In this document: positions 459 to 23,720 of the stretch, in pieces
Layout: each line of letters starts with the position of its first letter
Position numbering within the stretch: the first letter of the stretch is position 1
Virus record (IMG/VR): IMGVR_UViG_2724679539_000001
Location: 1-25,496 of that record
DNA length: 25,496 bases
Strand: one strand, 5' to 3'
Source of the DNA: a virus
Lineage: Duplodnaviria; Heunggongvirae; Uroviricota; Caudoviricetes
Translations under genes and position numbers: made by a program
Notes under the pieces: generated by a model
What the model saw: the letters and a program-made list of their open reading frames with translations, nothing else
Told to the model about the DNA's origin: nothing
Database searches by the model: none

Positions 459-463
459 ATCCC

Positions 464-1207: not shown

Positions 1208-1776
1208 AAACGGGGGCTGAAGCCATCCGGGCACTGGCCACACAGCTCCCGGCGTTTCGTCAGAAACTGAGCGACGGCTGGTATCAGGTACGGATTGCCG
1301 GGCGGGACGTCAGCACGTCCGGGTTAACGGCGCAGTTACATGAGACTCTGCCTGATGGCGCTGTGATTCATATTGTTCCCAGAGTCGCCGGGGCCAAGTC
1401 AGGTGGCGTATTCCAGATTGTCCTGGGGGCTGCCGCCATTGCCGGATCATTCTTTACCGCCGGAGCCACCCTTGCAGCATGGGGGGCAGCCATTGGGGCC
1501 GGTGGTATGACCGGCATCCTGTTTTCTCTCGGTGCCAGTATGGTCCTCGGTGGTGTGGCGCAGATGCTGGCACCGAAAGCCAGAACTCCCCGTACACAGA
1601 CAACGGATAACGGTAAGCAGAACACCTATTTCTCCTCACTGGATAACATGGTTGCCCAGGGCAATGTTCTGCCTGTTCTGTACGGGGAAATGCGCGTGGG
1701 GTCACGCGTGGTTTCTCAGGAGATCAGCACGGCAGACGAAGGGGACGGTGGTCAGGTTGTGGTGATTGGTCGCTGA
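1105..1776 (+). CDS. I: Tail tip assembly protein I (lambda gpI-like)
   Basis: 223-aa ORF beginning MAATHTLPLASPGMARICLYGDLQRF, with a Gly/Ala-rich hydrophobic C-terminal half. Position between K and J and the 60-bp gap to J match my recollection of lambda. Confidence 0.88.
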   Translation: MAATHTLPLASPGMARICLYGDLQRFGRRIDLRVKTGAEAIRALATQLPAFRQKLSDGWYQVRIAGRDVSTSGLTAQLHETLPDGAVIHIVPRVAGAKSGGVFQIVLGAAAIAGSFFTAGATLAAWGAAIGAGGMTGILFSLGASMVLGGVAQMLAPKARTPRTQTTDNGKQNTYFSSLDNMVAQGNVLPVLYGEMRVGSRVVSQEISTADEGDGGQVVVIGR

Positions 1777-1794
1777 TGCAAAATGTTTTATGTG

Positions 1795-1816
1795 AAACCG
1801 CCTGCGGGCGGTTTTG
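1795..1816 (+). terminator. Stem-loop between I and J (AAACCGCC-tgcg-GGCGGTTT, then TGTCATTT)
   Basis: 8-bp inverted repeat with 4-nt loop and a T-rich tail in the I-J gap; could be an attenuator or RNA structure. Mirror copy at 23681-23702 on the minus strand. Confidence 0.35.
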
Positions 1817-1836
1817 TCATTTATGGAGCGTGAGGA

Positions 1837-4800
1837 ATGAGTAAAGGAAGCAGTAAGGGGCATACCCCGCGCGAAGCGAAGGACAACCTGAAGTCCACGC
1901 AGTTGCTGAGTGTGATCGATGCCATCAGCGAAGGGCCGGTTGAAGGTCCGGTGGATGGATTAAAAAGCGTGCTGCTGAACAGTACGCCGGTGCTGGACAC
2001 TGAGGGGAATACCAACATCTCCGGTGTCACGGTGGTGTTCCGTGCCGGTGAGCAGGAGCAGACACCGCCGGAGGGGTTTGAATCCTCCGGCTCCGAGACG
2101 GTGTTGGGTACGGAAGTGAAATACGACACGCCGATCACCCGCGCCATCACGTCGGCAAACATCGACCGACTGCGCTTTACCTTCGGTGTGCAGGCACTGG
2201 TGGAAACCACCTCAAAGGGGGACCGGAATCCGTCGGAAGTTCGCCTGCTGGTTCAGATACAGCGTAATGGTGGCTGGGTGACGGAAAAAGATATCACCAT
2301 TAAGGGCAAAACCACCTCGCAGTATCTGGCCTCGGTGGTGGTGGATAACCTGCCGCCGCGCCCGTTTAATATCCGGATGCGCAGAATGACGCCGGACAGC
2401 ACCACAGACCAGCTGCAGAACAAAACGCTCTGGTCGTCATACACCGAAATCATCGATGTGAAACAGTGCTACCCGAACACGGCACTGGTCGGCGTGCAGG
2501 TGGATTCGGAGCAGTTCGGCAGCCAGCAGGTGAGCCGTAATTATCATCTTCGCGGGCGCATTCTGCAGGTGCCGTCGAATTATAACCCGCAGACGCGGCA
2601 ATACAGCGGTATCTGGGACGGAACGTTTAAGCCAGCATACAGCAACAACATGGCCTGGTGTCTGTGGGATATGCTGACCCATCCGCGCTACGGCATGGGG
2701 AAACGTCTTGGTGCGGCGGATGTGGACAAATGGGCGCTGTATGTCATCGGCCAGTACTGCGACCAGTCAGTGCCGGACGGCTTTGGCGGCACGGAGCCGC
2801 GCATCACCTGTAATGCGTACCTGACCACACAGCGCAAGGCGTGGGACGTTCTCAGTGATTTCTGCTCGGCGATGCGCTGTATGCCGGTATGGAACGGGCA
2901 GACGCTGACGTTCGTGCAGGACCGACCGTCGGATAAGGCGTGGACCTATAACCGCAGTAATGTGGTGATGCCGGATGATGGCGCGCCGTTCCGCTACAGC
3001 TTCAGCGCCCTGAAAGACCGCCATAATGCCGTTGAGGTGAACTGGATTGACCCGAACAACGGCTGGGAGACGGCGACAGAGCTTGTTGAAGATACGCAGG
3101 CCATTGCCCGTTACGGTCGTAATGTTACGAAGATGGATGCCTTTGGCTGTACCAGCCGGGGGCAGGCACACCGCGCCGGGCTGTGGCTGATTAAAACGGA
3201 GCTGCTGGAGACGCAGACCGTGGATTTCAGCGTCGGCGCAGAAGGGCTTCGCCATGTACCGGGCGATGTTATTGAAATCTGCGATGATGACTATGCCGGT
3301 ATCAGCACCGGTGGTCGTGTGCTGGCGGTGAACAGCCAGACCCGGACGCTGACGCTCGACCGTGAAATCACGCTGCCATCCTCCGGTACCACGCTGATAA
3401 GCCTGGTTGACGGAAGTGGCAATCCGGTCAGCGTGGAGGTTCAGTCCGTCAACGACGGCGTGAAGGTAAAAGTGAGCCGTGTTCCTGAGGGTGTTGCTGA
3501 ATACAGCGTATGGGGGCTGAAGCTGCCGACGCTGCGCCAGCGCCTGTTCCGCTGCGTGAGTATCCGTGAGAACGACGACGGCACGTATGCCATCACCGCC
3601 GTGCAGCATGTGCCGGAAAAAGAGGCCATCGTGGATAACGGGGCGCACTTTGACGGCGAACAGAGTGGCACGGTGAATGGTGTCACGCCGCCAGCGGTGC
3701 AGCACCTGACCGCAGAAGTCACTGCAGACAGCGGGGAATATCAGGTGCTGGCGCGATGGGACACACCGAAGGTGGTGAAGGGCGTGAGCTTCCTGCTCCG
3801 TCTGACCGTAACAGCGGACGACGGCAGTGAGCGGCTGGTCAGCACGGCCCGGACGACGGAAACCACATACCGCTTCACGCAACTGGCGCTGGGGAACTAC
3901 AGGCTGACAGTCCGGGCGGTAAATGCGTGGGGGCAGCAGGGCGATGCGGCGTCGGTATCGTTCCGGATTGCCGCACCGGCAGCACCGTCGAGGATTGAGC
4001 TGACGCCGGGCTATTTTCAGATAACCGCCACGCCGCATCTTGCCATTTATGACCCGACGGTACAGTTTGAGTTCTGGTTCTCGGAAAAGCGGATTACCGA
4101 TATCAGGCAGGTTGAAACCACAGCCCGCTATCTTGGCACGGCGCTGTACTGGATAGCCGCCAGTATCAATATCAAACCGGGCCATGATTATTATTTTTAC
4201 ATCCGCAGTGTGAACACCGTTGGCAAATCGGCATTTGTGGAGGCTGTTGGCCAGCCGAGTGATGATGCATCCGGCTATCTGGATTTTTTCAAAGGAGAGA
4301 TAGGGAAAAGCCATCTGGCTCAGGAGCTGTGGACGCAGATTGATAACGGTCAGCTTGCGCCTGACCTGGCTGAAATCAGGACGTCCATTACGGATGTCAG
4401 CAATGAAATCACGCAGACCGTCAATAAGAAACTGGAAGACCAGAGTGCGGCAATTCAGCAGATACAGAAGGTTCAGGTTGATACAAATAATAACCTGAAC
4501 AGCATGTGGGCTGTGAAGCTGCAGCAGATGCAGGACGGACGCCTTTATATCGCGGGTATTGGTGCCGGTATTGAGAATACCCCTGACGGTATGCAGAGTC
4601 AGGTGCTGCTGGCGGCGGACAGGATTGCGATGATTAATCCTGCGAATGGCAACACAAAGCCGATGTTTGTTGGTCAGGGCGATCAGATATTTATGAATGA
4701 AGTGTTCCTGAAATATCTGACGGCTCCCACCATTACCAGCGGCGGTAATCCTCCGGCATTTTCCCTGACACCGGACGGGCGGCTGACGGCAAAAAATGCC

Positions 4801-5316
4801 GATATCAGCGGTAACGTGAATGCGAACTCCGGGACGCTCAACAACGTCACGATTAACGAGAACTGCCGGGTTCTGGGAAAACTGTCCGCGAACCAGATTG
4901 AAGGCGATCTCGTTAAAACAGTGGGCAAAGCTTTCCCCCGTGACTCCCGTGCACCGGAACGGTGGCCATCAGGGACCATTACCGTCAGGGTTTATGACGA
5001 TCAGCCGTTTGACCGGCAGATTGTTATTCCAGCGGTGGCTTTCAGCGGTGCCAGACATGAACGGGAGAATAGCGATACTTATTCGTCATGCCGCCTGATA
5101 GTGAAGAAAAACGGGGCTGAAATTTATAACCGAACGGCTCTGGATAATACTCTGATTTACACGGGTGTTATTGATATGCCTGCAGGCAGTGGCGTAATGA
5201 CACTGGAGTTTTCGGTATCAGCATGGTGGGTAAATGGCTGGTATCCCACAGCAAGTATCAGCGATTTGCTGGTTGTGGTGATGAAGAAAGCCACCGCAGG
5301 CATCAGTATCAGCTGA
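1837..5316 (+). CDS. J: Tail tip attachment / host specificity protein J (lambda gpJ-like)
   Basis: 1159-aa ORF starting [34 protein letters not shown], near-identical to the lambda J N-terminus as recalled. Preceded by GAGG RBS. Fibronectin-like central repeats and a C-terminal receptor-binding region. Confidence 0.95.
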
Positions 5317-5335
5317 ATTTTATAACCCCAATACG

Positions 5336-5359
5336 GGCGTCAGAAATGACGCCTTTTTT
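5336..5359 (+). terminator. Rho-independent terminator downstream of J
   Basis: GGCGTCA-gaaa-TGACGCC followed by TTTTTT. Mirror copy at 20138-20161 on the minus strand. Confidence 0.65.
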
Positions 5360-5383
5360 ATTGCAGAAAAGCGAGAGGTAATT

Positions 5384-5983
5384 ATGCGTAAATTATGTGC
5401 TGTTATTCTGTCCGCAGTAGTCTGGCTGGTTGCCGCTGGTACGCCAGCGAGCGCAGCAGAGCATCAGTCCACACTAAGCGCCGGGTATCTTCAGGCCCAT
5501 ACTGATATGCCAGGCAGTGATGACCTGAAGGGCATTAACGTGAAATACCGTTATGAATTTACGGACACGCTGGGGCTGGTGACGTCATTCAGTTATGCCA
5601 ATGCCAAAGATGAGCAAAAAACGCATTACAGCGATACCCGCTGGCATGAAGATTCCGTGCGTAACCGCTGGTTCAGCATGATGGCGGGGCCATCTGTACG
5701 CGTGAATGAATGGTTCAGTGCTTATGCGATGGCAGGTGTGGCTTACAGCCGTGTTTCGACGTTCTCCGGGGATTATCTCCGCGTAACTGACAACAAGGGG
5801 AAAACGCACGATGTGCTGACCGGAAGTGATGACGATCGCCACAGCAACACGTCTCTGGCGTGGGGAGCTGGCGTGCAGTTTAACCCGACCGAATCCGTGG
5901 CCATTGATATTGCTTATGAAGGCTCCGGCAGTGGCGACTGGCGCACTGACGGTTTCATCGTGGGTGTCGGTTATAAGTTCTGA
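5384..5983 (+). CDS. lom: Lom-like outer membrane protein (Ail/Lom/PagC beta-barrel family)
   Basis: 199-aa ORF with signal peptide MRKLCAVILSAVVWLVAAGTPASA and a C-terminal aromatic residue (…VGYKF) typical of OMP barrels. Closely resembles lambda Lom; sits directly after J as in lambda. Confidence 0.9.
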   Translation: MRKLCAVILSAVVWLVAAGTPASAAEHQSTLSAGYLQAHTDMPGSDDLKGINVKYRYEFTDTLGLVTSFSYANAKDEQKTHYSDTRWHEDSVRNRWFSMMAGPSVRVNEWFSAYAMAGVAYSRVSTFSGDYLRVTDNKGKTHDVLTGSDDDRHSNTSLAWGAGVQFNPTESVAIDIAYEGSGSGDWRTDGFIVGVGYKF

Positions 5984-6009
5984 TTAGCCAGGTAACACAG
6001 TGTTATGAC

Positions 6010-6036
6010 AGCCCGCCGGTTCAGGCGGGCTTTTTT
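6010..6036 (+). terminator. Rho-independent terminator downstream of lom
   Basis: AGCCCGCC-ggttca-GGCGGGCT followed by TTTTTT. Mirror copy at 19461-19487 on the minus strand. Confidence 0.7.
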
Positions 6037-6047
6037 GTGGAGTGGAT

Positions 6048-8429
6048 ATGGCAGCAGTAAAAATCTCAGGTGTGCTGAAAGATGGTGCGGGAAAACCAAT
6101 ACAGAACTGCACTATTCAACTGAAGGCAAAGCGTAACAGCACCACGGTACTGGTGAACACGGTGGCCTCTGAAAATCCGGATGAAGCCGGGCGTTACAGC
6201 ATGGATGTTGAGTATGGTCAGTACAGCGTCACCCTGCTGGTTGAAGGTTTTCCGCCTTCACATGCCGGGACCATTACCGTCTATGAAGGTTCCAGACCAG
6301 GTACGCTGAATGATTTTCTCGGTGCCATGACGGAAGATGATGTCATGCCGGAGGCATTGCGTCGTTTTGAGGAAATGGTGGAAGAAGCGGCACGCAACGC
6401 TGAAGCCGCCTCTCAGAGCGCAGCGGCGGCAAAGAAATCCGAAACTGCAGCGGCATCATCGAAGAACGCGGCGAAAACCTCAGAAACGAATGCAGCTAAC
6501 AGCGCACAGGCGGCAGCGGCCTCGCAGACTGCATCGGCAAACTCCGCAACAGCAGCTAAAAAATCAGAAACCAACGCGAAAAATAGCGAGACAGCCGCAA
6601 AGACGAGCGAAACCAACGCAAAGTCCAGCCAGACGGCAGCGAAGACCAGCGAAACGAATGCCAAAGCCAGTGAAACTGCGGCAAAAAACAGCCAGGTTGC
6701 AGCAGCCCAAAGCGAGAGCGCGGCAGCCGGTTCTGCGACTTCAGCAGCTGGATCAGCAACTGCTACGGCTAACAGCCAGAAAGCTGCGAAGACGAGTGAA
6801 ACTAACGCAAAGTCCAGCCAGACGGCAGCGAAGACCAGCGAAACGAATGCCAAAGCCAGTGAAACTGCGGCGAAAAGCAGTCAGGATGCAGCGGCTCAAA
6901 GCGAGAGTGCCGCAGCCAGTTCTGCAAGCGCGGCGGCTGCTTCTGCCACTGCATCAGCCAACAGTCAAAAAGCAGCAAAAACCAGTGAAACCAATGCAAA
7001 GGCGAGCGAGACTGCGGCGGCTAACTCGGCGAAAGCATCCGCAGCAAGCCAGACGGCTGCAAAAGCAAGTGAAGACGCAGCCAGAGAGTATGCAAGCCAG
7101 GCTGCGGAGCCGTATAAACAAGTTTTGCAGCCGCTTCCCGATGTGTGGATACCATTTAACGATTCGCTGGATATGATTACGGGCTTTTCGCCGTCATATA
7201 AAAAGATTGTTATTGGTGATGATGAAATAACGATGCCTGGCGATAAGGTTGTAAAGTTTAAACGCGCATCAAAAGCAACTTACATTAATAAATCTGGTGT
7301 GCTGACAGAGGCTGCCATTGACGAGCCACGGTTTGAACGTGATGGCCTGCTTATTGAGGGGCAAAGAACTAATCTTCTGCTTAATTCAACAAATCCATCT
7401 AAATGGAATAAGTCAGGCAATCTGGAACTCACAGAAATATCCACGGATTCATTTAATTTTACTTATGGGAGATTTACTGTAAAAGATACTCTTATTGATC
7501 AGACAAGTGCGATTAATATCGCAACGGTTTCTGGCAGTAAAGGATTTGATGTCACAGGTGATGAAAAATATGTGACCATTTCATGCCGTGTCAGAAGTGA
7601 TGTTGAAAATATAAGGTGTCGTTTAAGATTTGAACATCATGATGGTTCTACTTACACTTTTTTGGGAGATGCTTACCTCAATTTATCAACACTTGTAATT
7701 GATAAGACTGGTGGTGCAGCAAATCGTATTATTGCAAAAGCTGTAAAAGATGAGGCTACTGGTTGGATTTTCTATCAGGCTACAATTAATGCACTAGATA
7801 CAGAGAGCATGATTGGTGCGATGGTTCAATATGCTCCAGTAAAAGGTTCAGGCACAGCATCTGGAGACTATCTGGATATCGCAACTCCACAAGTGGAAGG
7901 TGGATCAAGTGCTTCGTCATTTATTGTAACTGATATAACTGCAAGCACTCGCGCAAGCGATATGGTGACAGTCCCAATCAAGAATAACCTTTATAATCTT
8001 CCTTTTACGGTTCTTTGTGAGGTACATAAGAACTGGTATAAAACGCCAAATGCAGCACCGCGTGTTTTTGATACCGGCGGTCATCAAACCGGAGCGGCTA
8101 TTATTCTTGGCTTCGGTCGTTCAACAGATTACGACGGATTTCCTTATTGTGATATAGGTTTGGCTAACAGACGGGTAAACGAAAACGCATCGCTTGAAAA
8201 AATGGTTATGGGGATGCGTGTAAAGTCAGATCAGTCTACGTGCTCAGTAAGTAACGGGCGTATATCCAGCGAAACAAAAACCACATGGTCTTATATTCAG
8301 AACACCGCAATTATCCGTATTGGAGGCCAGACTACAGCCGGGTTACGTCATTTGTTTGGACACATCAGGAATTTCAGAATATGGCATAAAGAATTAACTG
8401 ATGCGCAAATGGGGGAGAGTATTAAATGA
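6048..8429 (+). CDS. stf: Side tail fibre protein with Stf-like N-terminal domain, Ala/Ser/Thr-rich repeat shaft and divergent AT-rich C-terminal domain
   Basis: N-terminus MAAVKISGVLKDGAGKPIQNCTIQLKAKRNSTTVLVNTVASENPDEAGRYSMDVEYGQYSV matches lambda Stf as recalled. The ORF track starts at GTG 6042; ATG at 6048 with GGAG 5 nt upstream is the more likely start. Confidence 0.85.
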   Translation: MAAVKISGVLKDGAGKPIQNCTIQLKAKRNSTTVLVNTVASENPDEAGRYSMDVEYGQYSVTLLVEGFPPSHAGTITVYEGSRPGTLNDFLGAMTEDDVMPEALRRFEEMVEEAARNAEAASQSAAAAKKSETAAASSKNAAKTSETNAANSAQAAAASQTASANSATAAKKSETNAKNSETAAKTSETNAKSSQTAAKTSETNAKASETAAKNSQVAAAQSESAAAGSATSAAGSATATANSQKAAKTSETNAKSSQTAAKTSETNAKASETAAKSSQDAAAQSESAAASSASAAAASATASANSQKAAKTSETNAKASETAAANSAKASAASQTAAKASEDAAREYASQAAEPYKQVLQPLPDVWIPFNDSLDMITGFSPSYKKIVIGDDEITMPGDKVVKFKRASKATYINKSGVLTEAAIDEPRFERDGLLIEGQRTNLLLNSTNPSKWNKSGNLELTEISTDSFNFTYGRFTVKDTLIDQTSAINIATVSGSKGFDVTGDEKYVTISCRVRSDVENIRCRLRFEHHDGSTYTFLGDAYLNLSTLVIDKTGGAANRIIAKAVKDEATGWIFYQATINALDTESMIGAMVQYAPVKGSGTASGDYLDIATPQVEGGSSASSFIVTDITASTRASDMVTVPIKNNLYNLPFTVLCEVHKNWYKTPNAAPRVFDTGGHQTGAAIILGFGRSTDYDGFPYCDIGLANRRVNENASLEKMVMGMRVKSDQSTCSVSNGRISSETKTTWSYIQNTAIIRIGGQTTAGLRHLFGHIRNFRIWHKELTDAQMGESIK
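6596..6929 (+). repeat. Internal tandem direct repeat inside stf (period 189 bp = 63 aa; two near-identical units with a 63-bp perfect core)
   Basis: 6621-6683 is identical to 6810-6872 (aagtccagccagacggcagcgaagaccagcgaaacgaatgccaaagccagtgaaactgcggc); flanks are ~85% identical. Encodes repeating KTSETNAK(A/S)S(E/Q)TAAK motifs. Confidence 0.85.
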
Positions 8430-8707
8430 AAGATTTAACACTCAAATTTGCAGACAGGGCCGACTTTTCGGCCTTTATGGAGAGTGCTGGCTATTATGAT
8501 GACGAGTCGATGCAGGATGATATTCTTATTGACGTGATAGGTAACGTGTACAAAGAAACCGGAGAACTTACTGAAGATGGCGAGCCGGTATGTGTTAAGG
8601 AAGACGGATATTTTGTAAACGTGCGCATCATTAATGATGTGAAAACACCGTCAATATTCGATGAATACGTGGTTGCTGTTGAGCATCAACTTCGTGGCTG
8701 GATGTGA
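8426..8707 (+). CDS. Hypothetical protein (93 aa), acidic, translationally coupled to stf (ATGA overlap)
   Basis: ORF with ATG overlapping the stf stop; AT-rich codon usage like its neighbours; no recognisable motif. Confidence 0.55.
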   Translation: MKDLTLKFADRADFSAFMESAGYYDDESMQDDILIDVIGNVYKETGELTEDGEPVCVKEDGYFVNVRIINDVKTPSIFDEYVVAVEHQLRGWM

Positions 8708-8716
8708 GGAAGAATA

Positions 8717-9757
8717 ATGGCTACATCGACAGTAATTCCTGATGACATCAAAACGCTAAAATCCGATGTTAGCAAATTAAAAAACGATCAAGGAAGCTAC
8801 GTAACAAAATCATATGTAGACAGCAAAAATGAAACCGTTAATGACTGGTCTGCTGCATGGTATCAGCAGGTACTGCCAACTAGCGGAGCTATATTTGGGC
8901 GAAAACTTCGCTCAACTCACAGGACGGCAGGTGTTGAGGATGCGTATTGCGAACTATACCTTAAAAAATGGATAGACAGCCCAGGGAACGCAATGGCGCG
9001 CCTTAACCTGAACGATAACGGTGAAAATATTTGCTGGGATTTTACCAACCTTTACGGCGGAACAATGATCTTCCCTGGTACTTCAGGCTATCTGAAAATG
9101 GGGAACTGTCTCATGTCGTATAGTGTGCGGGGAAGTAACGCGCTTATTAAGTTTGATTACACCGACACATTACAGATCAAATATGCTAATCATGGGTCAA
9201 CCATGACATTAACCACACAGGGATCCGCTCACGCTGGCGTAACAACTAGACTATGGGGTAATTCTAGCCGTCCGGTTGTTTATGAAGTTGGCGTAGATGA
9301 GGCTCTGTATATGTTCTACGCACAGAAAACTACCAGCAATACCTACGAATTAACGGTTAACGGCGCGTGCAATGCAAGTGCATTTAATCAAGGCTCTGAC
9401 CGGGATCTGAAAGACAATATTCAGGTGATCGATAATGCAACCGACCGCATTCGTAAAATGAACGGCTATACATACACGCTTAAAGAAAACGGTATGCCTT
9501 ACGCTGGTGTTATTGCACAAGAAACCCTGGAAGCCATCCCCGAAGCCGTAGGGTCTATGATGAAATATCCAGACGGCGGGAGTGGATTAGATGGAGAAGA
9601 AGGTGAACGGTATTACACAGTAGATTATTCTGGTGTTACTGGCTTGCTTGTTCAGGTAGCCAGAGAGTCGGACGACAGAATAACAGCACTGGAAGAAGAA
9701 AACGCAGAATTAAGACAAAGATTATCTGCAATTGAGGCGGCGCTTGCGTCTAAATAA
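8717..9757 (+). CDS. Tail fibre/tailspike-like protein with C-terminal peptidase S74 intramolecular chaperone (autoproteolytic) domain
   Basis: 346-aa ORF with GAGGA RBS. C-terminal region SDRDLKDNIQVIDNATDRIRKMNGYTYTLKENG...AGVIAQE followed by a coiled-coil tail (ITALEEENAELRQRLSAIEAALASK) fits the S74 chaperone signature with a Ser-x4-Lys dyad. Confidence 0.7.
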   Translation: MATSTVIPDDIKTLKSDVSKLKNDQGSYVTKSYVDSKNETVNDWSAAWYQQVLPTSGAIFGRKLRSTHRTAGVEDAYCELYLKKWIDSPGNAMARLNLNDNGENICWDFTNLYGGTMIFPGTSGYLKMGNCLMSYSVRGSNALIKFDYTDTLQIKYANHGSTMTLTTQGSAHAGVTTRLWGNSSRPVVYEVGVDEALYMFYAQKTTSNTYELTVNGACNASAFNQGSDRDLKDNIQVIDNATDRIRKMNGYTYTLKENGMPYAGVIAQETLEAIPEAVGSMMKYPDGGSGLDGEEGERYYTVDYSGVTGLLVQVARESDDRITALEEENAELRQRLSAIEAALASK

Positions 9758-9763
9758 TATTAA

Positions 9764-9786
9764 GGGGCCGAGCGCCCCGTTTTATT
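9764..9786 (+). terminator. Candidate terminator hairpin downstream of the S74-domain gene
   Basis: GGGGC-cgagc-GCCCC followed by GTTTTATT. Mirror copy at 15711-15733 on the minus strand. Confidence 0.45.
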
Positions 9787-9793
9787 GGGTAGG

Positions 9794-10087
9794 ATGAAAA
9801 TGGATATAACACCTTTCCTTCATGCACTTTGTGCTGTGGCTGCGCAGCTACTGATTGGTCTTTTTACCGGGAACTGGGCTTACGGTGCGATAGCCGGTTG
9901 TACGTTCTTCATCGCTCGTGAACATACCCAGGCAGAATATCGCTGGATTGAAATGTTCGGGCATGGCAAGCGTATGAATATGCCGTGGTGGGGCGGTTTT
10001 GATCCTCGCGCGTGGGATGTAGCAAGCCTGATGGATTTTGCTGTGCCGGTGGTGGCGTGTTTACTTGTATTTATATTTTTTGAATAA
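9794..10087 (+). CDS. Hypothetical small membrane protein (two predicted transmembrane segments)
   Basis: The ORF track begins at TTG 9785; ATG at 9794 or 9800 (GGTAGGA 5 nt upstream of 9800) is more plausible. Hydrophobic segments FLHALCAVAAQLLIGLF and VPVVACLLVFIFF. Confidence 0.55.
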   Translation: MKMDITPFLHALCAVAAQLLIGLFTGNWAYGAIAGCTFFIAREHTQAEYRWIEMFGHGKRMNMPWWGGFDPRAWDVASLMDFAVPVVACLLVFIFFE

Positions 10088-10092
10088 AATTA

Positions 10093-10119
10093 AGACCCCA
10101 TCTATAACTGATGGGGTCT
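10093..10119. terminator. Bidirectional terminator-like hairpin between the convergent membrane-protein gene and sopB
   Basis: Perfect 10-bp inverted repeat AGACCCCATC-tataact-GATGGGGTCT with A/T-rich flanks on both sides. Mirror copy at 15378-15404. Confidence 0.5.
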
Positions 10120-10135
10120 ATTCTATTTTCTGCTA

Positions 10136-11125
10136 TTAGTTATTTTTTACATCGGAAGAATTTCCAAACGCCTCCTCAAGAATAGATTCAATTTTACTCA
10201 TTAGGTGCGATGGTATTTTTCTGTTATCTAATTTTAATGTTGTGAAATTTTTCCCATATTTCGCCACAACACCGTCTCCATATTTCTTTTCCCTTTTCTC
10301 TCCATGTGAATTGTTTTTCTCAACAATAATGAAATCATGAAGAGCCTGTATTATTCTTTGCGCATCTAAACTTTCACCTGATTTTTTCATCCTCAGCAAC
10401 TGAGATGCAGCATTTTTCATGGCTGCTTCCTGTCCCTGATATGCTTTAAAAAGAGCGTCTCCTGCTCTGGCTGATAACTCACCAGGATGGTTAAATATTG
10501 CCAATATATCTTTAGGTAAACCGGCTGTATTAATACATCGGCTGATAATATTTCTATCCACGCCTTCGGCTTCAGCTAAAGATTTTACGTTACCGTCAAA
10601 TTCATGGAGCCTTCGCAGGTATCTTTTCCCCCTTTCATAGGCGCTGATAGGTCTATAGTCGTTGCCTATCTGCGATAACCATTGCATTTGTTCATCATCT
10701 AAATCGCCAATAAGAACACGATAATCGCATCCAGTTATAATGGCTGCTTTACGTCTTCGAGAACCATCAGCTACTTCAACAATACCTGACACTTTTCTTG
10801 CGAAAGCCGGATTTTGTTGCCCAGAAGTTAGAAAAGATGGAATTAAATCAGCTAGAGAAGATTCATTTAATAAATCTTGATCACGCTCATTACCTAGCCA
10901 TACCATTGTTGCCATTTCTACTTTATCTGCGGGGATCGTCTCTAACTTAAAGTTAACATTACGTCCGCATACTGGCAAAGTTATGCTATTACCGGTTAAT
11001 GAACTCAGTTGACGTTTTAAATCACCAACCATAGGTGATACCGGCTGATGTTCAGGTGCATGATGATTATTACTCATAATGCGATTAATATCCGGAGCAT
11101 TTTTTAGAAGAGAGCGTTGTTTCAT
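10136..11125 (-). CDS. sopB: Partition protein SopB (ParB family, type Ia)
   Basis: 329-aa ORF. N-terminal two-thirds resemble F-plasmid SopB (ITLPVCGR, WxGNERDQ, GQQ.PAF, DGSRRRKAA, NDYRP.SAYERG, FSHPGELSA-like motifs); the C-terminus is divergent. ATG overlaps the sopA stop. Confidence 0.9.
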   Translation of the reverse strand: MKQRSLLKNAPDINRIMSNNHHAPEHQPVSPMVGDLKRQLSSLTGNSITLPVCGRNVNFKLETIPADKVEMATMVWLGNERDQDLLNESSLADLIPSFLTSGQQNPAFARKVSGIVEVADGSRRRKAAIITGCDYRVLIGDLDDEQMQWLSQIGNDYRPISAYERGKRYLRRLHEFDGNVKSLAEAEGVDRNIISRCINTAGLPKDILAIFNHPGELSARAGDALFKAYQGQEAAMKNAASQLLRMKKSGESLDAQRIIQALHDFIIVEKNNSHGEKREKKYGDGVVAKYGKNFTTLKLDNRKIPSHLMSKIESILEEAFGNSSDVKNN

Positions 11126-12291
11126 TCTTCGTTCTCCCAGCGAGGTTTTATTAGATCATCAAAAATTTCTCGACAAACAGGGTCCCATATAGAGACGGCA
11201 TTTCTCCATGCATTAAGTGTTGAACGCTGGTTTGCCGCTTGTTCAAATACTGTTCGCATTTTTATCTGACCTTTACCTACTTCATCGGTAACGCGTACAA
11301 CCTGACGTAATACCATTGATCCCCATGTATTTCTTATTTGCTCTTCCATCCATCGTGATTGATTTCCTGTAGTGAGACTATATTTAGTCAGAAGCAAGCG
11401 AACGGTCGGCTCAAATCCGCCTAGGTCAACGCTTTCTAGGAGATCGAGAAGCATTGTGAAAAACTGTAGAACAGAGGCGTAATCAAATAATTCTGCAGGG
11501 GTAGCAACAACGATAACGTCAGCTGCGCAAACAACGTTAATGGTTCCTGTACCGAGGTTTGGAGCACTATCTATAACGATAACATCGTAGTTATCCCAAA
11601 CTGATTCTATAGCTGCGCGTAGCATCAGGTGAGGAGGGTGAGGCAATTTACCCTGAGCATGATATTGCATGAGATCTGTTTCTATACGGTGTAAAGCTAG
11701 GCAGCTAGGAATAATGTCCAGTCCAGGCCAGCATGTTGGTTTTATAGCATATTCAGCGTTATCGCGTTCGCCCAAGTAAAATGGCAGTAAAGTATCCTCG
11801 GCATGTATATGTAAATCAGGTACATAACCGTGATACATGGAGGCTGTTCCCTGAGGATCGTTACCTTCAACTAAAAGAACACGATGACCTTGTAATGCTA
11901 GCCATTGTGCCTGATGTACTGCAGACGATGTTTTATAAACTCCGCCTTTGTGTGACATAACAGCAAGCACAACTGGGTTTTTATCTTGTGGCCGTTGGTT
12001 TGGGTTGCCAAAAACAGCTCGCATACTATTGATTTGATCTATGGTATAACCGGCACGACGTTCAACTCTTCCTCTCATTTCAAAGTCAGGTGCAGGTAAA
12101 CGCCCGTTCTTCTCAGCATCTCTTATTGCTTGAGGAGTTACACCAATTAAATCTGCTACTTCAGTTATCCCCCATCTACGCGTGATACGCCGAGCTTCAG
12201 GACTATCATCACCGAATTGAGCTATAGCAATTGCTTGGGTCATTTCTTGACCGCGCGTAACACAATCTTGTAATAACTTTTTCAAAGACAT
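11122..12291 (-). CDS. sopA: Partition ATPase SopA (ParA family, type Ia with N-terminal HTH extension)
   Basis: 389-aa ORF with deviant Walker A KGGVYKTS and a long N-terminal extension. High similarity to F/N15 SopA as recalled (LLVEGNDPQGTASMYHG, IDSAPNLG, KGQIRMRTVFEQA-like blocks). GGAG RBS. Confidence 0.95.
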   Translation of the reverse strand: MSLKKLLQDCVTRGQEMTQAIAIAQFGDDSPEARRITRRWGITEVADLIGVTPQAIRDAEKNGRLPAPDFEMRGRVERRAGYTIDQINSMRAVFGNPNQRPQDKNPVVLAVMSHKGGVYKTSSAVHQAQWLALQGHRVLLVEGNDPQGTASMYHGYVPDLHIHAEDTLLPFYLGERDNAEYAIKPTCWPGLDIIPSCLALHRIETDLMQYHAQGKLPHPPHLMLRAAIESVWDNYDVIVIDSAPNLGTGTINVVCAADVIVVATPAELFDYASVLQFFTMLLDLLESVDLGGFEPTVRLLLTKYSLTTGNQSRWMEEQIRNTWGSMVLRQVVRVTDEVGKGQIKMRTVFEQAANQRSTLNAWRNAVSIWDPVCREIFDDLIKPRWENEE

Positions 12292-12312
12292 ACTGTCATC
12301 TCCAGCTTATAA

Positions 12313-12390
12313 CTTTGCTTAATAATTATTGCTTTGCATATTTCTAGCAAATTGACATAGAAAAAGCAAAGTAAAACAAAAAAGGCAAAG
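12313..12390 (-). promoter_or_regulatory. Putative sopAB promoter/operator region with four CTTTGC/GCAAAG hexamers
   Basis: Hexamers at 12313-12318, 12332-12337, 12366-12371 and 12385-12390, immediately upstream of sopA. F SopA is known to autoregulate via CTTTGC repeats overlapping its promoter. Exact -35/-10 not resolved. Confidence 0.45.
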
Positions 12391-12570
12391 ACGAAGATTT
12401 GAACAAAATCATCTTTTGTTTTATCCCTTAAATGCAAAAAAAAACAACGGCAAGATCATAACAAATTGATAATAAAGGATTTTTTAAAAGAAAGGAAATC
12501 GTATAAAACTAGTGAAACATGATGAAAATCATCAATGAGATACGTTTCCTCTATTTATTCTCCTAATCCT

Positions 12571-12720
12571 CACCAACAAAAGAACACAATCAAAGATCGT
12601 AAAACAACAATAATAATTCACACAAAATAAAGAACACAAATACAGAAAACAACAACACAATAAAAACAAGAGAACACAAGCTATAAATATTACACCAATA
12701 GAGAACACTAATCAAGAACA
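12571..12720. repeat. Array of AGAACACA(A) direct repeats flanking the telomere palindrome (left arm)
   Basis: AGAACACAAT at 12581-12590, AGAACACAAA at 12631-12640, AACAACACAA at 12651-12660, AGAACACAAG at 12671-12680, GAGAACACTA at 12701-12710, and GAACA at 12716-12720 abutting the palindrome. Confidence 0.6.
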
Positions 12721-12776
12721 TATCAGCACATAATTTCCCATTATACGCGCGTATAATGGGAAATTATGTGCTGATA
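12721..12776. other. 56-bp perfect palindrome at the symmetry axis; putative protelomerase target / hairpin telomere (telRL/telO-like)
   Basis: Sequence TATCAGCACATAATTTCCCATTATACGCGCGTATAATGGGAAATTATGTGCTGATA. The central 22 bp match the N15 telO core as I recall it; the flanking arms differ from N15 at a few positions. Sits immediately beyond sopA, as telL does in N15. Confidence 0.75.
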
Positions 12777-12926
12777 TGTTCTTGATTAGTGTTCTCTATT
12801 GGTGTAATATTTATAGCTTGTGTTCTCTTGTTTTTATTGTGTTGTTGTTTTCTGTATTTGTGTTCTTTATTTTGTGTGAATTATTATTGTTGTTTTACGA
12901 TCTTTGATTGTGTTCTTTTGTTGGTG
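12777..12926. repeat. Mirror copy of the AGAACACA repeat array (right arm, opposite orientation)
   Basis: Reverse complement of 12571-12720 (TGTGTTCT motifs). Confidence 0.6.
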
Positions 12927-13106
12927 AGGATTAGGAGAATAAATAGAGGAAACGTATCTCATTGATGATTTTCATCATGTTTCACTAGTTTTATACGATT
13001 TCCTTTCTTTTAAAAAATCCTTTATTATCAATTTGTTATGATCTTGCCGTTGTTTTTTTTTGCATTTAAGGGATAAAACAAAAGATGATTTTGTTCAAAT
13101 CTTCGT

Positions 13107-13184
13107 CTTTGCCTTTTTTGTTTTACTTTGCTTTTTCTATGTCAATTTGCTAGAAATATGCAAAGCAATAATTATTAAGCAAAG
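13107..13184 (+). promoter_or_regulatory. Putative sopAB promoter/operator region (mirror copy)
   Basis: Mirror of 12313-12390; CTTTGC/GCAAAG hexamers upstream of the second sopA copy. Confidence 0.45.
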
Positions 13185-13205
13185 TTATAAGCTGGAGATG
13201 ACAGT

Positions 13206-14375
13206 ATGTCTTTGAAAAAGTTATTACAAGATTGTGTTACGCGCGGTCAAGAAATGACCCAAGCAATTGCTATAGCTCAATTCGGTGATGATAGTCCTGA
13301 AGCTCGGCGTATCACGCGTAGATGGGGGATAACTGAAGTAGCAGATTTAATTGGTGTAACTCCTCAAGCAATAAGAGATGCTGAGAAGAACGGGCGTTTA
13401 CCTGCACCTGACTTTGAAATGAGAGGAAGAGTTGAACGTCGTGCCGGTTATACCATAGATCAAATCAATAGTATGCGAGCTGTTTTTGGCAACCCAAACC
13501 AACGGCCACAAGATAAAAACCCAGTTGTGCTTGCTGTTATGTCACACAAAGGCGGAGTTTATAAAACATCGTCTGCAGTACATCAGGCACAATGGCTAGC
13601 ATTACAAGGTCATCGTGTTCTTTTAGTTGAAGGTAACGATCCTCAGGGAACAGCCTCCATGTATCACGGTTATGTACCTGATTTACATATACATGCCGAG
13701 GATACTTTACTGCCATTTTACTTGGGCGAACGCGATAACGCTGAATATGCTATAAAACCAACATGCTGGCCTGGACTGGACATTATTCCTAGCTGCCTAG
13801 CTTTACACCGTATAGAAACAGATCTCATGCAATATCATGCTCAGGGTAAATTGCCTCACCCTCCTCACCTGATGCTACGCGCAGCTATAGAATCAGTTTG
13901 GGATAACTACGATGTTATCGTTATAGATAGTGCTCCAAACCTCGGTACAGGAACCATTAACGTTGTTTGCGCAGCTGACGTTATCGTTGTTGCTACCCCT
14001 GCAGAATTATTTGATTACGCCTCTGTTCTACAGTTTTTCACAATGCTTCTCGATCTCCTAGAAAGCGTTGACCTAGGCGGATTTGAGCCGACCGTTCGCT
14101 TGCTTCTGACTAAATATAGTCTCACTACAGGAAATCAATCACGATGGATGGAAGAGCAAATAAGAAATACATGGGGATCAATGGTATTACGTCAGGTTGT
14201 ACGCGTTACCGATGAAGTAGGTAAAGGTCAGATAAAAATGCGAACAGTATTTGAACAAGCGGCAAACCAGCGTTCAACACTTAATGCATGGAGAAATGCC
14301 GTCTCTATATGGGACCCTGTTTGTCGAGAAATTTTTGATGATCTAATAAAACCTCGCTGGGAGAACGAAGAATGA
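13206..14375 (+). CDS. sopA: Partition ATPase SopA (mirror copy)
   Basis: Protein identical to the 11122-12291 ORF. Confidence 0.95.
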   Translation: MSLKKLLQDCVTRGQEMTQAIAIAQFGDDSPEARRITRRWGITEVADLIGVTPQAIRDAEKNGRLPAPDFEMRGRVERRAGYTIDQINSMRAVFGNPNQRPQDKNPVVLAVMSHKGGVYKTSSAVHQAQWLALQGHRVLLVEGNDPQGTASMYHGYVPDLHIHAEDTLLPFYLGERDNAEYAIKPTCWPGLDIIPSCLALHRIETDLMQYHAQGKLPHPPHLMLRAAIESVWDNYDVIVIDSAPNLGTGTINVVCAADVIVVATPAELFDYASVLQFFTMLLDLLESVDLGGFEPTVRLLLTKYSLTTGNQSRWMEEQIRNTWGSMVLRQVVRVTDEVGKGQIKMRTVFEQAANQRSTLNAWRNAVSIWDPVCREIFDDLIKPRWENEE

Positions 14376-15361
14376 AACAACGCTCTCTTCTAAAAAATGC
14401 TCCGGATATTAATCGCATTATGAGTAATAATCATCATGCACCTGAACATCAGCCGGTATCACCTATGGTTGGTGATTTAAAACGTCAACTGAGTTCATTA
14501 ACCGGTAATAGCATAACTTTGCCAGTATGCGGACGTAATGTTAACTTTAAGTTAGAGACGATCCCCGCAGATAAAGTAGAAATGGCAACAATGGTATGGC
14601 TAGGTAATGAGCGTGATCAAGATTTATTAAATGAATCTTCTCTAGCTGATTTAATTCCATCTTTTCTAACTTCTGGGCAACAAAATCCGGCTTTCGCAAG
14701 AAAAGTGTCAGGTATTGTTGAAGTAGCTGATGGTTCTCGAAGACGTAAAGCAGCCATTATAACTGGATGCGATTATCGTGTTCTTATTGGCGATTTAGAT
14801 GATGAACAAATGCAATGGTTATCGCAGATAGGCAACGACTATAGACCTATCAGCGCCTATGAAAGGGGGAAAAGATACCTGCGAAGGCTCCATGAATTTG
14901 ACGGTAACGTAAAATCTTTAGCTGAAGCCGAAGGCGTGGATAGAAATATTATCAGCCGATGTATTAATACAGCCGGTTTACCTAAAGATATATTGGCAAT
15001 ATTTAACCATCCTGGTGAGTTATCAGCCAGAGCAGGAGACGCTCTTTTTAAAGCATATCAGGGACAGGAAGCAGCCATGAAAAATGCTGCATCTCAGTTG
15101 CTGAGGATGAAAAAATCAGGTGAAAGTTTAGATGCGCAAAGAATAATACAGGCTCTTCATGATTTCATTATTGTTGAGAAAAACAATTCACATGGAGAGA
15201 AAAGGGAAAAGAAATATGGAGACGGTGTTGTGGCGAAATATGGGAAAAATTTCACAACATTAAAATTAGATAACAGAAAAATACCATCGCACCTAATGAG
15301 TAAAATTGAATCTATTCTTGAGGAGGCGTTTGGAAATTCTTCCGATGTAAAAAATAACTAA
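14372..15361 (+). CDS. sopB: Partition protein SopB (mirror copy)
   Basis: Protein identical to the 10136-11125 ORF. Confidence 0.9.
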   Translation: MKQRSLLKNAPDINRIMSNNHHAPEHQPVSPMVGDLKRQLSSLTGNSITLPVCGRNVNFKLETIPADKVEMATMVWLGNERDQDLLNESSLADLIPSFLTSGQQNPAFARKVSGIVEVADGSRRRKAAIITGCDYRVLIGDLDDEQMQWLSQIGNDYRPISAYERGKRYLRRLHEFDGNVKSLAEAEGVDRNIISRCINTAGLPKDILAIFNHPGELSARAGDALFKAYQGQEAAMKNAASQLLRMKKSGESLDAQRIIQALHDFIIVEKNNSHGEKREKKYGDGVVAKYGKNFTTLKLDNRKIPSHLMSKIESILEEAFGNSSDVKNN

Positions 15362-15409
15362 TAGCAGAAAATAGAATAGACCCCATCAGTTATAGATGGG
15401 GTCTTAATT

Positions 15410-15703
15410 TTATTCAAAAAATATAAATACAAGTAAACACGCCACCACCGGCACAGCAAAATCCATCAGGCTTGCTACATCCCACGCGCGAGGATCAAAA
15501 CCGCCCCACCACGGCATATTCATACGCTTGCCATGCCCGAACATTTCAATCCAGCGATATTCTGCCTGGGTATGTTCACGAGCGATGAAGAACGTACAAC
15601 CGGCTATCGCACCGTAAGCCCAGTTCCCGGTAAAAAGACCAATCAGTAGCTGCGCAGCCACAGCACAAAGTGCATGAAGGAAAGGTGTTATATCCATTTT
15701 CAT
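15410..15703 (-). CDS. Hypothetical small membrane protein (mirror copy)
   Basis: Mirror of 9794-10087. Confidence 0.55.
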   Translation of the reverse strand: MKMDITPFLHALCAVAAQLLIGLFTGNWAYGAIAGCTFFIAREHTQAEYRWIEMFGHGKRMNMPWWGGFDPRAWDVASLMDFAVPVVACLLVFIFFE

Positions 15704-15739
15704 CCTACCCAATAAAACGGGGCGCTCGGCCCCTTAATA

Positions 15740-16780
15740 TTATTTAGACGCAAGCGCCGCCTCAATTGCAGATAATCTTTGTCTTAATTCTGCGTTTTCT
15801 TCTTCCAGTGCTGTTATTCTGTCGTCCGACTCTCTGGCTACCTGAACAAGCAAGCCAGTAACACCAGAATAATCTACTGTGTAATACCGTTCACCTTCTT
15901 CTCCATCTAATCCACTCCCGCCGTCTGGATATTTCATCATAGACCCTACGGCTTCGGGGATGGCTTCCAGGGTTTCTTGTGCAATAACACCAGCGTAAGG
16001 CATACCGTTTTCTTTAAGCGTGTATGTATAGCCGTTCATTTTACGAATGCGGTCGGTTGCATTATCGATCACCTGAATATTGTCTTTCAGATCCCGGTCA
16101 GAGCCTTGATTAAATGCACTTGCATTGCACGCGCCGTTAACCGTTAATTCGTAGGTATTGCTGGTAGTTTTCTGTGCGTAGAACATATACAGAGCCTCAT
16201 CTACGCCAACTTCATAAACAACCGGACGGCTAGAATTACCCCATAGTCTAGTTGTTACGCCAGCGTGAGCGGATCCCTGTGTGGTTAATGTCATGGTTGA
16301 CCCATGATTAGCATATTTGATCTGTAATGTGTCGGTGTAATCAAACTTAATAAGCGCGTTACTTCCCCGCACACTATACGACATGAGACAGTTCCCCATT
16401 TTCAGATAGCCTGAAGTACCAGGGAAGATCATTGTTCCGCCGTAAAGGTTGGTAAAATCCCAGCAAATATTTTCACCGTTATCGTTCAGGTTAAGGCGCG
16501 CCATTGCGTTCCCTGGGCTGTCTATCCATTTTTTAAGGTATAGTTCGCAATACGCATCCTCAACACCTGCCGTCCTGTGAGTTGAGCGAAGTTTTCGCCC
16601 AAATATAGCTCCGCTAGTTGGCAGTACCTGCTGATACCATGCAGCAGACCAGTCATTAACGGTTTCATTTTTGCTGTCTACATATGATTTTGTTACGTAG
16701 CTTCCTTGATCGTTTTTTAATTTGCTAACATCGGATTTTAGCGTTTTGATGTCATCAGGAATTACTGTCGATGTAGCCAT
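15740..16780 (-). CDS. Tail fibre-like protein with S74 intramolecular chaperone domain (mirror copy)
   Basis: Protein identical to the 8717-9757 ORF. Confidence 0.7.
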   Translation of the reverse strand: MATSTVIPDDIKTLKSDVSKLKNDQGSYVTKSYVDSKNETVNDWSAAWYQQVLPTSGAIFGRKLRSTHRTAGVEDAYCELYLKKWIDSPGNAMARLNLNDNGENICWDFTNLYGGTMIFPGTSGYLKMGNCLMSYSVRGSNALIKFDYTDTLQIKYANHGSTMTLTTQGSAHAGVTTRLWGNSSRPVVYEVGVDEALYMFYAQKTTSNTYELTVNGACNASAFNQGSDRDLKDNIQVIDNATDRIRKMNGYTYTLKENGMPYAGVIAQETLEAIPEAVGSMMKYPDGGSGLDGEEGERYYTVDYSGVTGLLVQVARESDDRITALEEENAELRQRLSAIEAALASK

Positions 16781-16789
16781 TATTCTTCC

Positions 16790-17071
16790 TCACATCCAGC
16801 CACGAAGTTGATGCTCAACAGCAACCACGTATTCATCGAATATTGACGGTGTTTTCACATCATTAATGATGCGCACGTTTACAAAATATCCGTCTTCCTT
16901 AACACATACCGGCTCGCCATCTTCAGTAAGTTCTCCGGTTTCTTTGTACACGTTACCTATCACGTCAATAAGAATATCATCCTGCATCGACTCGTCATCA
17001 TAATAGCCAGCACTCTCCATAAAGGCCGAAAAGTCGGCCCTGTCTGCAAATTTGAGTGTTAAATCTTTCAT
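16790..17071 (-). CDS. Hypothetical protein, 93 aa (mirror copy)
   Basis: Protein identical to the 8426-8707 ORF. Confidence 0.55.
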   Translation of the reverse strand: MKDLTLKFADRADFSAFMESAGYYDDESMQDDILIDVIGNVYKETGELTEDGEPVCVKEDGYFVNVRIINDVKTPSIFDEYVVAVEHQLRGWM

Positions 17072-23660: not shown

Positions 23661-23720
23661 TCCTCACGCTCCATAAATGACAAAACCGCCCGCAGGCGGT
23701 TTCACATAAAACATTTTGCA

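Follow-up and report, generated by a model that had tools for sequence, protein, structure and literature searches.

A small predicted membrane protein family, PHROG 1443, accompanies the tail-fibre and tailspike genes of unrelated phages and has cellular orthologues

The window, i.e., the whole stretch of viral DNA analysed here (25,496 nucleotides (nt), IMG/VR record IMGVR_UViG_2724679539_000001), contains a small open reading frame (ORF) directly before a convergent sopB gene. An original prediction, made from the sequence letters, had described its product as a small two-helix membrane protein at the junction of the tail and partition modules and had suggested a role in superinfection exclusion or receptor masking. 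Our comparisons identify the ORF as a genuine coding gene under purifying selection and as a member of the family PHROG 1443, which is linked to receptor-binding genes in at least nine phage types and also occurs on bacterial chromosomes. We tentatively propose a function connected to the cell surface or envelope that infected cells offer to phages.

The plus-strand ORF ends with a stop at 10087, and the ORF list offers three candidate starts, TTG 9785, ATG 9794 and ATG 9800, among which the original prediction had left the choice open. Comparative evidence identifies ATG 9800, and not 9785 or 9794, as the start codon. The PHROG 1443 profile alignment opens at residue 3 of the 97 amino acid (aa) form, and homologues begin at or near M-D-(I/L)-(T/S)-P, some of them with a few extra leading residues. 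An AGGA motif lies 5 nt from ATG 9800; in phage 21, Escherichia ruysiae and other copies AGGAGG stands just 5' of the same ATG, and the phage 21 record has a ribosome-binding site annotated at the equivalent place. Furthermore, the 5' DNA of these copies is unrelated right up to the equivalent of ATG 9800. The gene and its ribosome-binding motif are as follows.

9800 to 10087, plus strand: PHROG 1443 gene, 95 codons plus stop, MDITPF...FIFFE* (ORF list, profile match, identity with PhiR46_1, dN/dS)
9791 to 9794, plus strand: Shine-Dalgarno-like AGGA, 5 nt 5' of ATG 9800 (read from the sequence)

XSB42799.1, annotated as a hypothetical protein in the N15-like telomere phage PhiR46_1 of Escherichia, has exactly the same 95-aa sequence (100% identity). 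At the DNA level the two genes differ by synonymous changes only (proportion of synonymous differences, pS, 0.064; of nonsynonymous differences, pN, 0). The ratio of nonsynonymous to synonymous change (dN/dS) was 0.15-0.23 against copies from E. coli, E. ruysiae, Escherichia sp. and phage 21, and 0.17 against the copy in the P22-like phage JEP4. A spurious ORF is ruled out by the homology together with these ratios. The protein matched PHROG 1443 over its full length (E 5.8e-57, 190.8 bits; residues 3-95 of the 97-aa form on profile positions 1-93 of 97), a family annotated as of unknown function and not as a lysis family. The gene had been said to have no recognisable family; this holds for Pfam, NCBIfam and PADLOC, none of which gave an above-cut-off match, but not for PHROG. 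By sequence, the window gene is thus ordinary, since it exactly copies a gene already deposited from a phage and falls into a PHROG that exists but is uncharacterised.

Searches for more distant relationships gave little. The single Pfam signal of the protein was PhoR PF11808 with 13.3 bits against a cut-off of 27.1, and a Pfam scan of 130 diverse relatives returned nothing beyond a sub-threshold match to the PhoR N-terminus in 10 of them (best E 0.0032) and one weak holin match. Profile hidden Markov models from 34 and 130 sequences retrieved nothing below E 0.39 from the sequences of the PDB, and Foldseek searches of the AlphaFold2 model gave no match at E <= 0.001 in PDB or BFVD, the best PDB matches being PsaL-like three-helix subunits with E of about 4. 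The protein was not mentioned in the literature searched, part of which was covered by keywords only.

The family is large and widespread. In a collection clustered at 90% identity we found 573 homologues at E <= 0.001, and at 50% identity 447 clusters. Each homologue stands alone, with a length of about 60-145 aa (90-120 aa in most), and none is a domain of a larger protein. DNA with at least 90% identity to the ORF was present in 1903 of 5426 complete E. coli genomes (about 35%), with a median of two and a maximum of six copies per positive genome, at 3707 chromosomal and 57 plasmid places, where it was always annotated as hypothetical protein. The phage 21 member CPT_21_24, annotated as putative membrane protein, is 90.5% identical to the window protein.

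The position of the gene beside the tail module, as originally predicted, was borne out, and the link to receptor-binding genes across unrelated phages is stronger than the letters of the window could show. The genes of PhiR46_1 and phage 21 sit after side tail fibre genes, as in the window. The contexts found were as follows.

PhiR46_1 (N15-like) and the window: J, lom, stf, a 93-aa gene and a 346-aa fibre gene, followed by the PHROG 1443 gene
Phage 21 (lambdoid): stf, a 92-aa gene and a gap of 12 nt, followed by the PHROG 1443 gene
JEP4 (P22-like): PHROG 1443 gene overlapping the tailspike stop, with int next, filling the interval from tailspike to int exactly
Halomonas phage phiHAP-1 (telomere myophage): PHROG 1443 gene between a tail-fibre assembly gene and the sheath gene
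Leclercia and Aeromonas salmonicida P2/HP1-like prophages: PHROG 1443 gene abutting or overlapping a tail-fibre gene, with further co-oriented genes downstream, one of them with an HP1_ORF34 domain
P1-like plasmid prophage: PHROG 1443 gene after two fibre genes and before lydB
Comamonas prophage: PHROG 1443 gene after a 2520-aa gpJ-like gene and a 72-aa gene
Desulfovibrio, Chelativorans and Halomonas prophages: PHROG 1443 gene adjoining tailspike, tail or fibre genes
Aeromonas jumbo phage ACP1: PHROG 1443 gene just before a putative tail fibre gene
Kuttervirus (Salmonella): unannotated PHROG 1443 fragment among tailspike genes

Gene-order comparison therefore shows that the phage copies form a discrete module the size of one gene, placed within tail-fibre and tailspike clusters or at their 3' end. 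The upstream ORF was co-oriented in 44 of 61 genome loci, and in 24 of these 44 the gap measured between -35 and +27 nt. Tail-fibre and tail families dominated the PHROG census of the first and second upstream genes, which unexpectedly also contained housekeeping genes; this census compared mixed, unrelated neighbour proteins with PHROGs and Pfam and took the top families only, so that it does not give a fraction per locus. In a stricter check only five of ten large upstream genes had tail matches, partly because the two Aeromonas loci included (L008 and L013) are chromosomal.

Between the end of the fibre gene and the start of the ORF (9757 to 9800) a consensus scan, the only promoter search made, detected no sigma-70-like site; the nearest promoter-like site, a weak 9/12 match, is located at 9407-9436, upstream of a terminator-like hairpin. 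The same scan revealed hairpins on both sides of the gene, of which the upstream one is also present in the E. ruysiae copy that has the same upstream gene.

9764 to 9778, plus strand: terminator-like GC hairpin GGGGCCGAGCGCCCC and then TTTTATT, in the gap from the 346-aa fibre gene to the ORF (consensus scan)
10093 to 10119, both strands: two-way terminator-like hairpin with a 10-bp stem, between the ORF and the convergent sopB (consensus scan)

The lack of a promoter-like site in this interval, together with the overlap or abutment with an upstream late gene in many phages, suggests that the gene is expressed late with the tail-fibre genes rather than from the prophage. Compared with a moron, which is expected to have its own promoter, the gene gives a mixed picture: it is present or absent among relatives (N15 carries a UmuD-like gene at this place), it is followed by a terminator-like hairpin, and its GC content is 0.486 against 0.38-0.44 in its neighbours, but a promoter-like site, as said, was not found. 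The original prediction had placed the gene in an AT-rich acquired block. An AT-rich block is indeed present from 7000 to 12748 (GC 0.41 against 0.56 upstream), but the ORF itself is its least AT-rich part.

Copies outside phages were found in two groups of bacteria. In Aeromonas a chromosomal block consists of a pirin gene and the PHROG 1443 gene, followed on the other strand by a RIO1 kinase gene and two lipid A acyltransferase paralogues. This synteny is kept in five genomes, one each of A. aquatica, A. taiwanensis and A. rivipollensis and two of A. media.

Aeromonas chromosomal loci: L081, positions 8001-11645; also L008, L010, L012 and L013

Sphingomonadales copies lie among housekeeping genes in varying contexts, namely beside an AI-2E transporter gene, after an aspartate-oxidase-like gene, or between rmuC and a DsbA-family gene with which the copy overlaps by 4 nt. 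In three further loci the gene is preceded by one for NAD-dependent DNA ligase. With a sphingomonad member as query, 664 further proteins were retrieved, mostly from metagenome sources. The conserved gene order shows the Aeromonas orthologues to be vertically inherited and of non-phage nature; the Sphingomonadales copies are stand-alone chromosomal genes. The neighbouring genes for late acyltransferases of lipid A may hint at a link of the Aeromonas gene to lipid A or lipopolysaccharide (LPS).

AlphaFold2, provided with an alignment of 34 sequences, returned a model with a pLDDT of 91.9 and a pTM of 0.72. It contains three helices, aa 4-23, 26-53 and 74-94; conservation was determined for 116-130 diverse members.

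9809 to 9868, plus strand: helix 1, aa 4-23 (AlphaFold2 model and conservation)
9875 to 9958, plus strand: helix 2, aa 26-53 (AlphaFold2 model and conservation)
9917 to 10015, plus strand: near-invariant segment, aa 40-72, REhTQAEYRWI..FG.G.R.NMPWWGGFD.R.W (conservation)
10019 to 10081, plus strand: helix 3, aa 74-94, with conserved D79 and P83 (AlphaFold2 model)

In the model the first hydrophobic stretch of about 35 residues is a helical hairpin that turns at the conserved G24-N25-W26. Helix 1 carries H8 (96% conserved), a conserved i+4 face of A12, Q16, G20 and G24 with a G20xxxG24 motif, and thereby a conserved polar residue, Q16, in mid-membrane. Helix 2 has a membrane part, aa 26-39 with G29xxxG33, and continues outside the membrane as an amphipathic extension bearing R40, E41, Q44, A45, E46, Y47, R48 and I50. 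A loop of about 35 residues separates helices 2 and 3, and the chain ends one residue past helix 3, so that the periplasmic mass of the model amounts to a turn of 2-4 residues and the last residue or two. R40 is invariant; H8, E41, Q44, A45, E46, W72 and P83 are at least 90% and Y47, R48, I50, R58 and D79 at least 80% conserved. QAEYRWI and NMPWWGGFD can be recognised in Sphingomonas, Desulfovibrio and a Dehalococcoidia metagenome-assembled genome as well as in E. coli phages; one cross-class set of loci was retrieved with these two motifs as search patterns and is biased accordingly, whereas the set from profile searches is not. The H/E/D/R cluster could equally be a structural salt-bridge network across the three modelled helices or a binding or catalytic site.

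Lysine plus arginine counted 6.6 for the N-terminus and the 40-78 loop against 0.87 for the hairpin turn and the C-terminus. By the positive-inside rule we infer from this an N-in/C-out topology with the invariant loop on the cytoplasmic face. A crude sum on the Hessa scale rated helices 1 and 3 hydrophobic and helix 2 marginal, which explains why both TMHMM, which in the phage 21 record gives two transmembrane domains (TMD) with N-in/C-in, and the original prediction counted two helices. The two-helix reading is thus understandable, although in view of the model it is less likely than three; that the product is a small integral membrane protein was predicted correctly.

A connection with the phage-visible surface is the reading we favour, as a tentative possibility suggested by gene order and conservation. 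The gene would be transcribed from the late operon with the tail-fibre genes, having no promoter of its own, and late transcription would read through the hairpin at 9764 under late antitermination, as is known from lambdoid and N15 late transcription. With its loop in the cytoplasm, the protein may bind or act on an inner-membrane component conserved across Proteobacteria, the most attractive candidate being a step, lipid-linked or protein, in the assembly of surface polysaccharide or of the envelope. What the cell presents at its surface or envelope to phages that use the neighbouring fibres would thereby be altered, with the outcome that infected or lysogenic cells might be protected and progeny spared futile adsorption. 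The protein would not itself mask an outer-membrane receptor. Receptor-modifying and exclusion genes commonly adjoin receptor-binding genes; N15 cor, for instance, lies within the tail genes.

Several observations weigh against this proposal. We detected no homology to any characterised protein, and both target and effect on phages are pure inference. The topology is uncertain: the second transmembrane helix is marginal, the two-TMD form of TMHMM would put the loop into the periplasm, and some homologues carry lysine or arginine in their C-terminal tails. A general physiological role would agree equally well with the chromosomal orthologues and with the one to six near-identical copies found per E. 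coli genome. Since the protein is highly conserved and the adjacent fibres are very diverse, it cannot be tuned to the particular receptor of each fibre. Sphingomonads are not known to have classical LPS, which limits an LPS-specific reading. Finally, the end of a fibre cluster could merely be a site that tolerates cargo.

A variant of the proposal would make the protein an unusually small (about 95 aa), membrane-embedded catalytic or ligand-binding module. It would bind a metal or a phosphorylated lipid carrier via the invariant interfacial residues H8, R40, E41, Q44, E46, R58, W72 and D79 and its substrate would be a universal precursor of the envelope, both in cells such as Aeromonas and sphingomonads and, where the gene is carried beside tail-fibre genes, in phage-infected cells. 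We consider this improbable; if true, it would represent a new class of phage-borne envelope-remodelling factor.

Among the rival explanations, superinfection exclusion at the inner membrane is a possible if unlikely one. The protein would block entry of the incoming genome in the manner of HK97 gp15, P22 SieA or T4 Imm, for which a periplasmic domain is unnecessary, and a small integral inner-membrane protein encoded in the tail region of temperate phages, where the HK97 gp15 moron likewise sits, and varying in presence among related phages (in N15 the UmuD-like gene takes its place), suits this role. It shows no homology to gp15 or SieA, however, and the tight coupling to late genes together with the promoter-like site not found means that it is perhaps not made in lysogens. 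Near-invariance across bacterial classes and vertically inherited cellular orthologues are atypical of exclusion proteins, which are fast-evolving and phage-specific; several near-identical copies per genome and the occurrence in jumbo phage ACP1 also argue against it. In another explanation the protein serves general cell physiology, for example by forming a small channel, acting as a transporter subunit or stress factor, or regulating a membrane machine, and phages carry it as a fitness factor without any anti-phage role. The orthologues in conserved Aeromonas synteny and among Sphingomonadales housekeeping genes, the strongly conserved polar residues including mid-membrane Q16, and the presence in 35% of complete E. 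coli genomes with a median of two copies all speak for this. Still, we regard such cargo as an unlikely explanation, which leaves the near-constant placement at tail-fibre or tailspike genes of unrelated phages, sometimes with late genes on both sides, unaccounted for; moreover, a lysogen fitness factor is expected to have its own promoter, and none was found.

The co-orientation and tight packing with late structural genes would also suit a late lytic helper, either a lysis-timing regulator of the holin or antiholin type or a membrane anchor for tail-fibre or tail assembly or for virion release. The gene lies just upstream of lydB in the P1-like plasmid prophage, and three helices in about 95 aa resemble a class I holin in size. 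But there is no charged C-terminal tail, the endolysin gene is not adjacent in most phages, only one of 130 members gave a weak holin match (E 0.0036), PHROG 1443 is not annotated as a lysis family, cellular orthologues are hard to explain, and close relatives such as N15 dispense with the gene; we consider a late helper quite improbable. A class I holin in particular was rejected on account of the conserved 35-residue loop, the chain end one residue past helix 3 and the fibre and partition neighbours. That the protein directly masks an outer-membrane receptor, as Cor and Llp do, is highly improbable. Adjacency to receptor-binding genes and the presence of cor among the N15 tail genes speak for it, but the model leaves almost no mass on the non-loop side (the short turn and the C-terminal residue or two), the hhalign probability against Cor was only 0.2%, a lipobox is missing, and the protein is conserved though the neighbouring fibres, and hence the receptors, differ. 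The receptor-masking suggestion of the original prediction is weakened by the same minimal periplasmic part and by the missing Cor homology.

Comparison with characterised systems leads to the conclusion that, by sequence, the PHROG 1443 protein is unrelated to Cor, HK97 gp15 and P22 SieA. Cor, which blocks FhuA and is known from N15 (gene 24), phi80, T1 and HK022, is likewise small and encoded among tail genes of temperate siphophages. However, Cor is an outer-membrane lipoprotein, whereas the PHROG 1443 protein is predicted to be a polytopic inner-membrane protein. A lipobox was not found: the sole N-terminal cysteine, C11, is preceded by H-A-L and replaced by I, V or L in most homologues. 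Alignment with N15 gp24 by hhalign covered 10 columns, and cor has another map position. The analogy to N15 drawn in the original prediction is not supported, the N15 gene before sopB being the UmuD-like gene 26. HK97 gp15 and P22 SieA (hhalign probabilities 0.3% and 0.3%) likewise come from temperate phages, are small and integral to the inner membrane, and have genes within or beside the virion cluster. Both are expressed from the prophage and have a promoter and terminator to themselves (sieA with an annotated promoter, gp15 known as a moron), whereas for the PHROG 1443 gene the scan found no promoter-like site; PHROG 1443 also has conserved cellular orthologues. N15 gp22 was rejected as well (probability <1%), as was E. 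coli SecE (0.3%); SecE was included because AREHTQAEYRWI loosely resembles its segment FAREARTEVRKVIW.

Tailspike-adjacent conversion genes have cellular homologues and change the surface structure recognised by the phage. P22 gtrABC, Sf6 oac, CUS-3 neuO and epsilon15 genes 21/22 place membrane-associated functions directly after a receptor-binding gene, as is the case for PHROG 1443. The P22 tailspike gene, for example, is adjoined by the receptor-modifying genes gtrABC (PMC2629481). The P22 gtr genes are transcribed opposite to the tailspike gene, whereas the PHROG 1443 gene is co-oriented with and coupled to the fibre gene, and with 95 aa its product is far smaller than any known modifying enzyme. 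Neither the protein nor its 130 relatives had a GtrA, glycosyltransferase (GT2) or acyltransferase-3 Pfam match at E <= 1. The PhoR N-terminal hairpin (PF11808) shares two close transmembrane helices followed by a Trp/Arg-rich cytoplasmic interfacial stretch, but PHROG 1443 lacks the kinase domain and remained at 13 bits against the gathering cut-off of 27.1; the resemblance is most likely topological or compositional and not homology.

The neighbourhood of the gene in the window comprises a fibre cassette on one side and the partition genes on the other, so that it is, as predicted, the last gene before the convergent sopB.

6042 to 8429, plus strand: side tail fibre gene, 795 aa, annotated Stf in PhiR46_1, heading the fibre cassette (ORF list)
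6585 to 7019: tandem repeat in the side tail fibre gene, unit of 189 nt (63 codons), 2.3 copies, 82% identity
8426 to 8707, plus strand: 93-aa gene, PHROG 1361, unknown function, no Pfam (ORF list, PHROG search)
8717 to 9757, plus strand: 346-aa tail fibre gene with a Peptidase_S74 intramolecular chaperone domain, immediately 5' of the PHROG 1443 gene
10136 to 11125, minus strand: sopB (SoPB_HTH; Pfam), annotated ParB in PhiR46_1
11122 to 12291, minus strand: sopA (AAA_31/CbiA; Pfam), annotated ParA in PhiR46_1

The 346-aa fibre protein matched Pfam PF13884 (E 8.8e-14) and PHROG 4563 'tail fiber protein' (E 3e-210). The tandem repeat in the side tail fibre gene has nested periodicities of 42 nt and 21 nt and accounts for the extreme AT skew of the interval (0.58) and for the inverted-repeat pairs I2 and I3. 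The 93-aa PHROG 1361 protein may be a small fibre chaperone or adaptor. In phage 21 a protein of this type is encoded directly between stf and the membrane protein gene, and in a P1-like Leclercia plasmid prophage (L085) unnamed genes of 94-95 aa (5994-6278 and 7601-7888) follow each of the two fibre genes. On the partition side, a 51-aa hydrophobic ORF (12282-12437, minus strand), a hypothetical protein in PhiR46_1, overlaps the sopA start.

DNA alignment revealed that identity among the copies begins at the start codon and stops near codon 88 whatever flanks the gene, which argues that the gene moves as a unit. From about nt 10061 (codon 88) the window departs from the lambdoid copies, and the megablast match to chromosomal prophages stops at query position 3061, corresponding to window position 10060. 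The last seven or so codons (10061-10087) consequently read VFIFFE* in the window and VWLLVNRG* or similar elsewhere, the feature that distinguishes the window gene from family members of phage 21 and other lambdoid phages. As judged from these alignments, the tail-fibre and sop modules meet at a recombination joint inside the 3' end of the gene, and the C-terminal tail apparently tolerates replacement. In phage 21 (L002, 5386-8835) a convergent sitABCD operon, an iron/manganese ABC transporter cargo, occupies the place that sopBA has in the window; hence, the same joint hosts very different cargo.

Additionally, the window was found to be a perfect palindrome with arms 7-12748 and 12749-25490, each of 12,742 nt, 100% complementary and without spacer, so that every feature of the window is present twice.

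15410 to 15697, minus strand: mirror copy of the PHROG 1443 gene in the second arm, identical translation

The centre of the palindrome at 12748/12749, ...ATATCAGCACATAATTTCCCATTATACGCG|CGTATAATGGGAAATTATGTGCTGATAT..., agrees with the N15 telRL core, and the annotated telRL cut site falls on the same central CGCG; in the 46-kb linear genome of PhiR46_1 the ParA (sopA)-proximal end is annotated 'telR site'. Together with the palindrome itself, these matches suggest that the window reads through, or folds back over, the covalently closed hairpin telomere of a linear plasmid prophage of the N15 kind. The palindrome could be an artefact of assembly or an intermediate of head-to-head replication. 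A similar fold-back contig may be present in E. coli EC21Z-151 (RefSeq NZ_CP101203.1, 14.5 kb, two places). Between sopA and the hairpin tip, the interval 12570-12720 (GC 0.29) contains several GAACACAA-like motifs (AAGAACACAATC, AAGAACACAAAT, GAGAACACAAGC and AGAGAACACTAAT), which may be flanking repeats of the protelomerase site or centromere-like repeats.

PHROG 1443 is among the most widely shared accessory genes of tail-fibre modules, occurring in lambda-, N15-, P22-, P2- and P1-like phages and others; about 35% of complete E. coli genomes have it, in one to six copies, yet every database says 'hypothetical'. That its 35-residue loop is conserved in E. coli phages, on Aeromonas chromosomes and in soil sphingomonads implies that the molecular target is both precise and ancient. 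Should the family modify the envelope or exclude phages, a phage accessory function of known sort would be carried out by a non-homologous protein. Prevalence, strong conservation and cellular orthologues make the protein a reasonable, if not surprising, target for experiments. Once its target is identified, it would become clear whether the protein serves phages in managing their own receptor or the envelope in late infection, and thousands of prophage annotations would gain a functional label.

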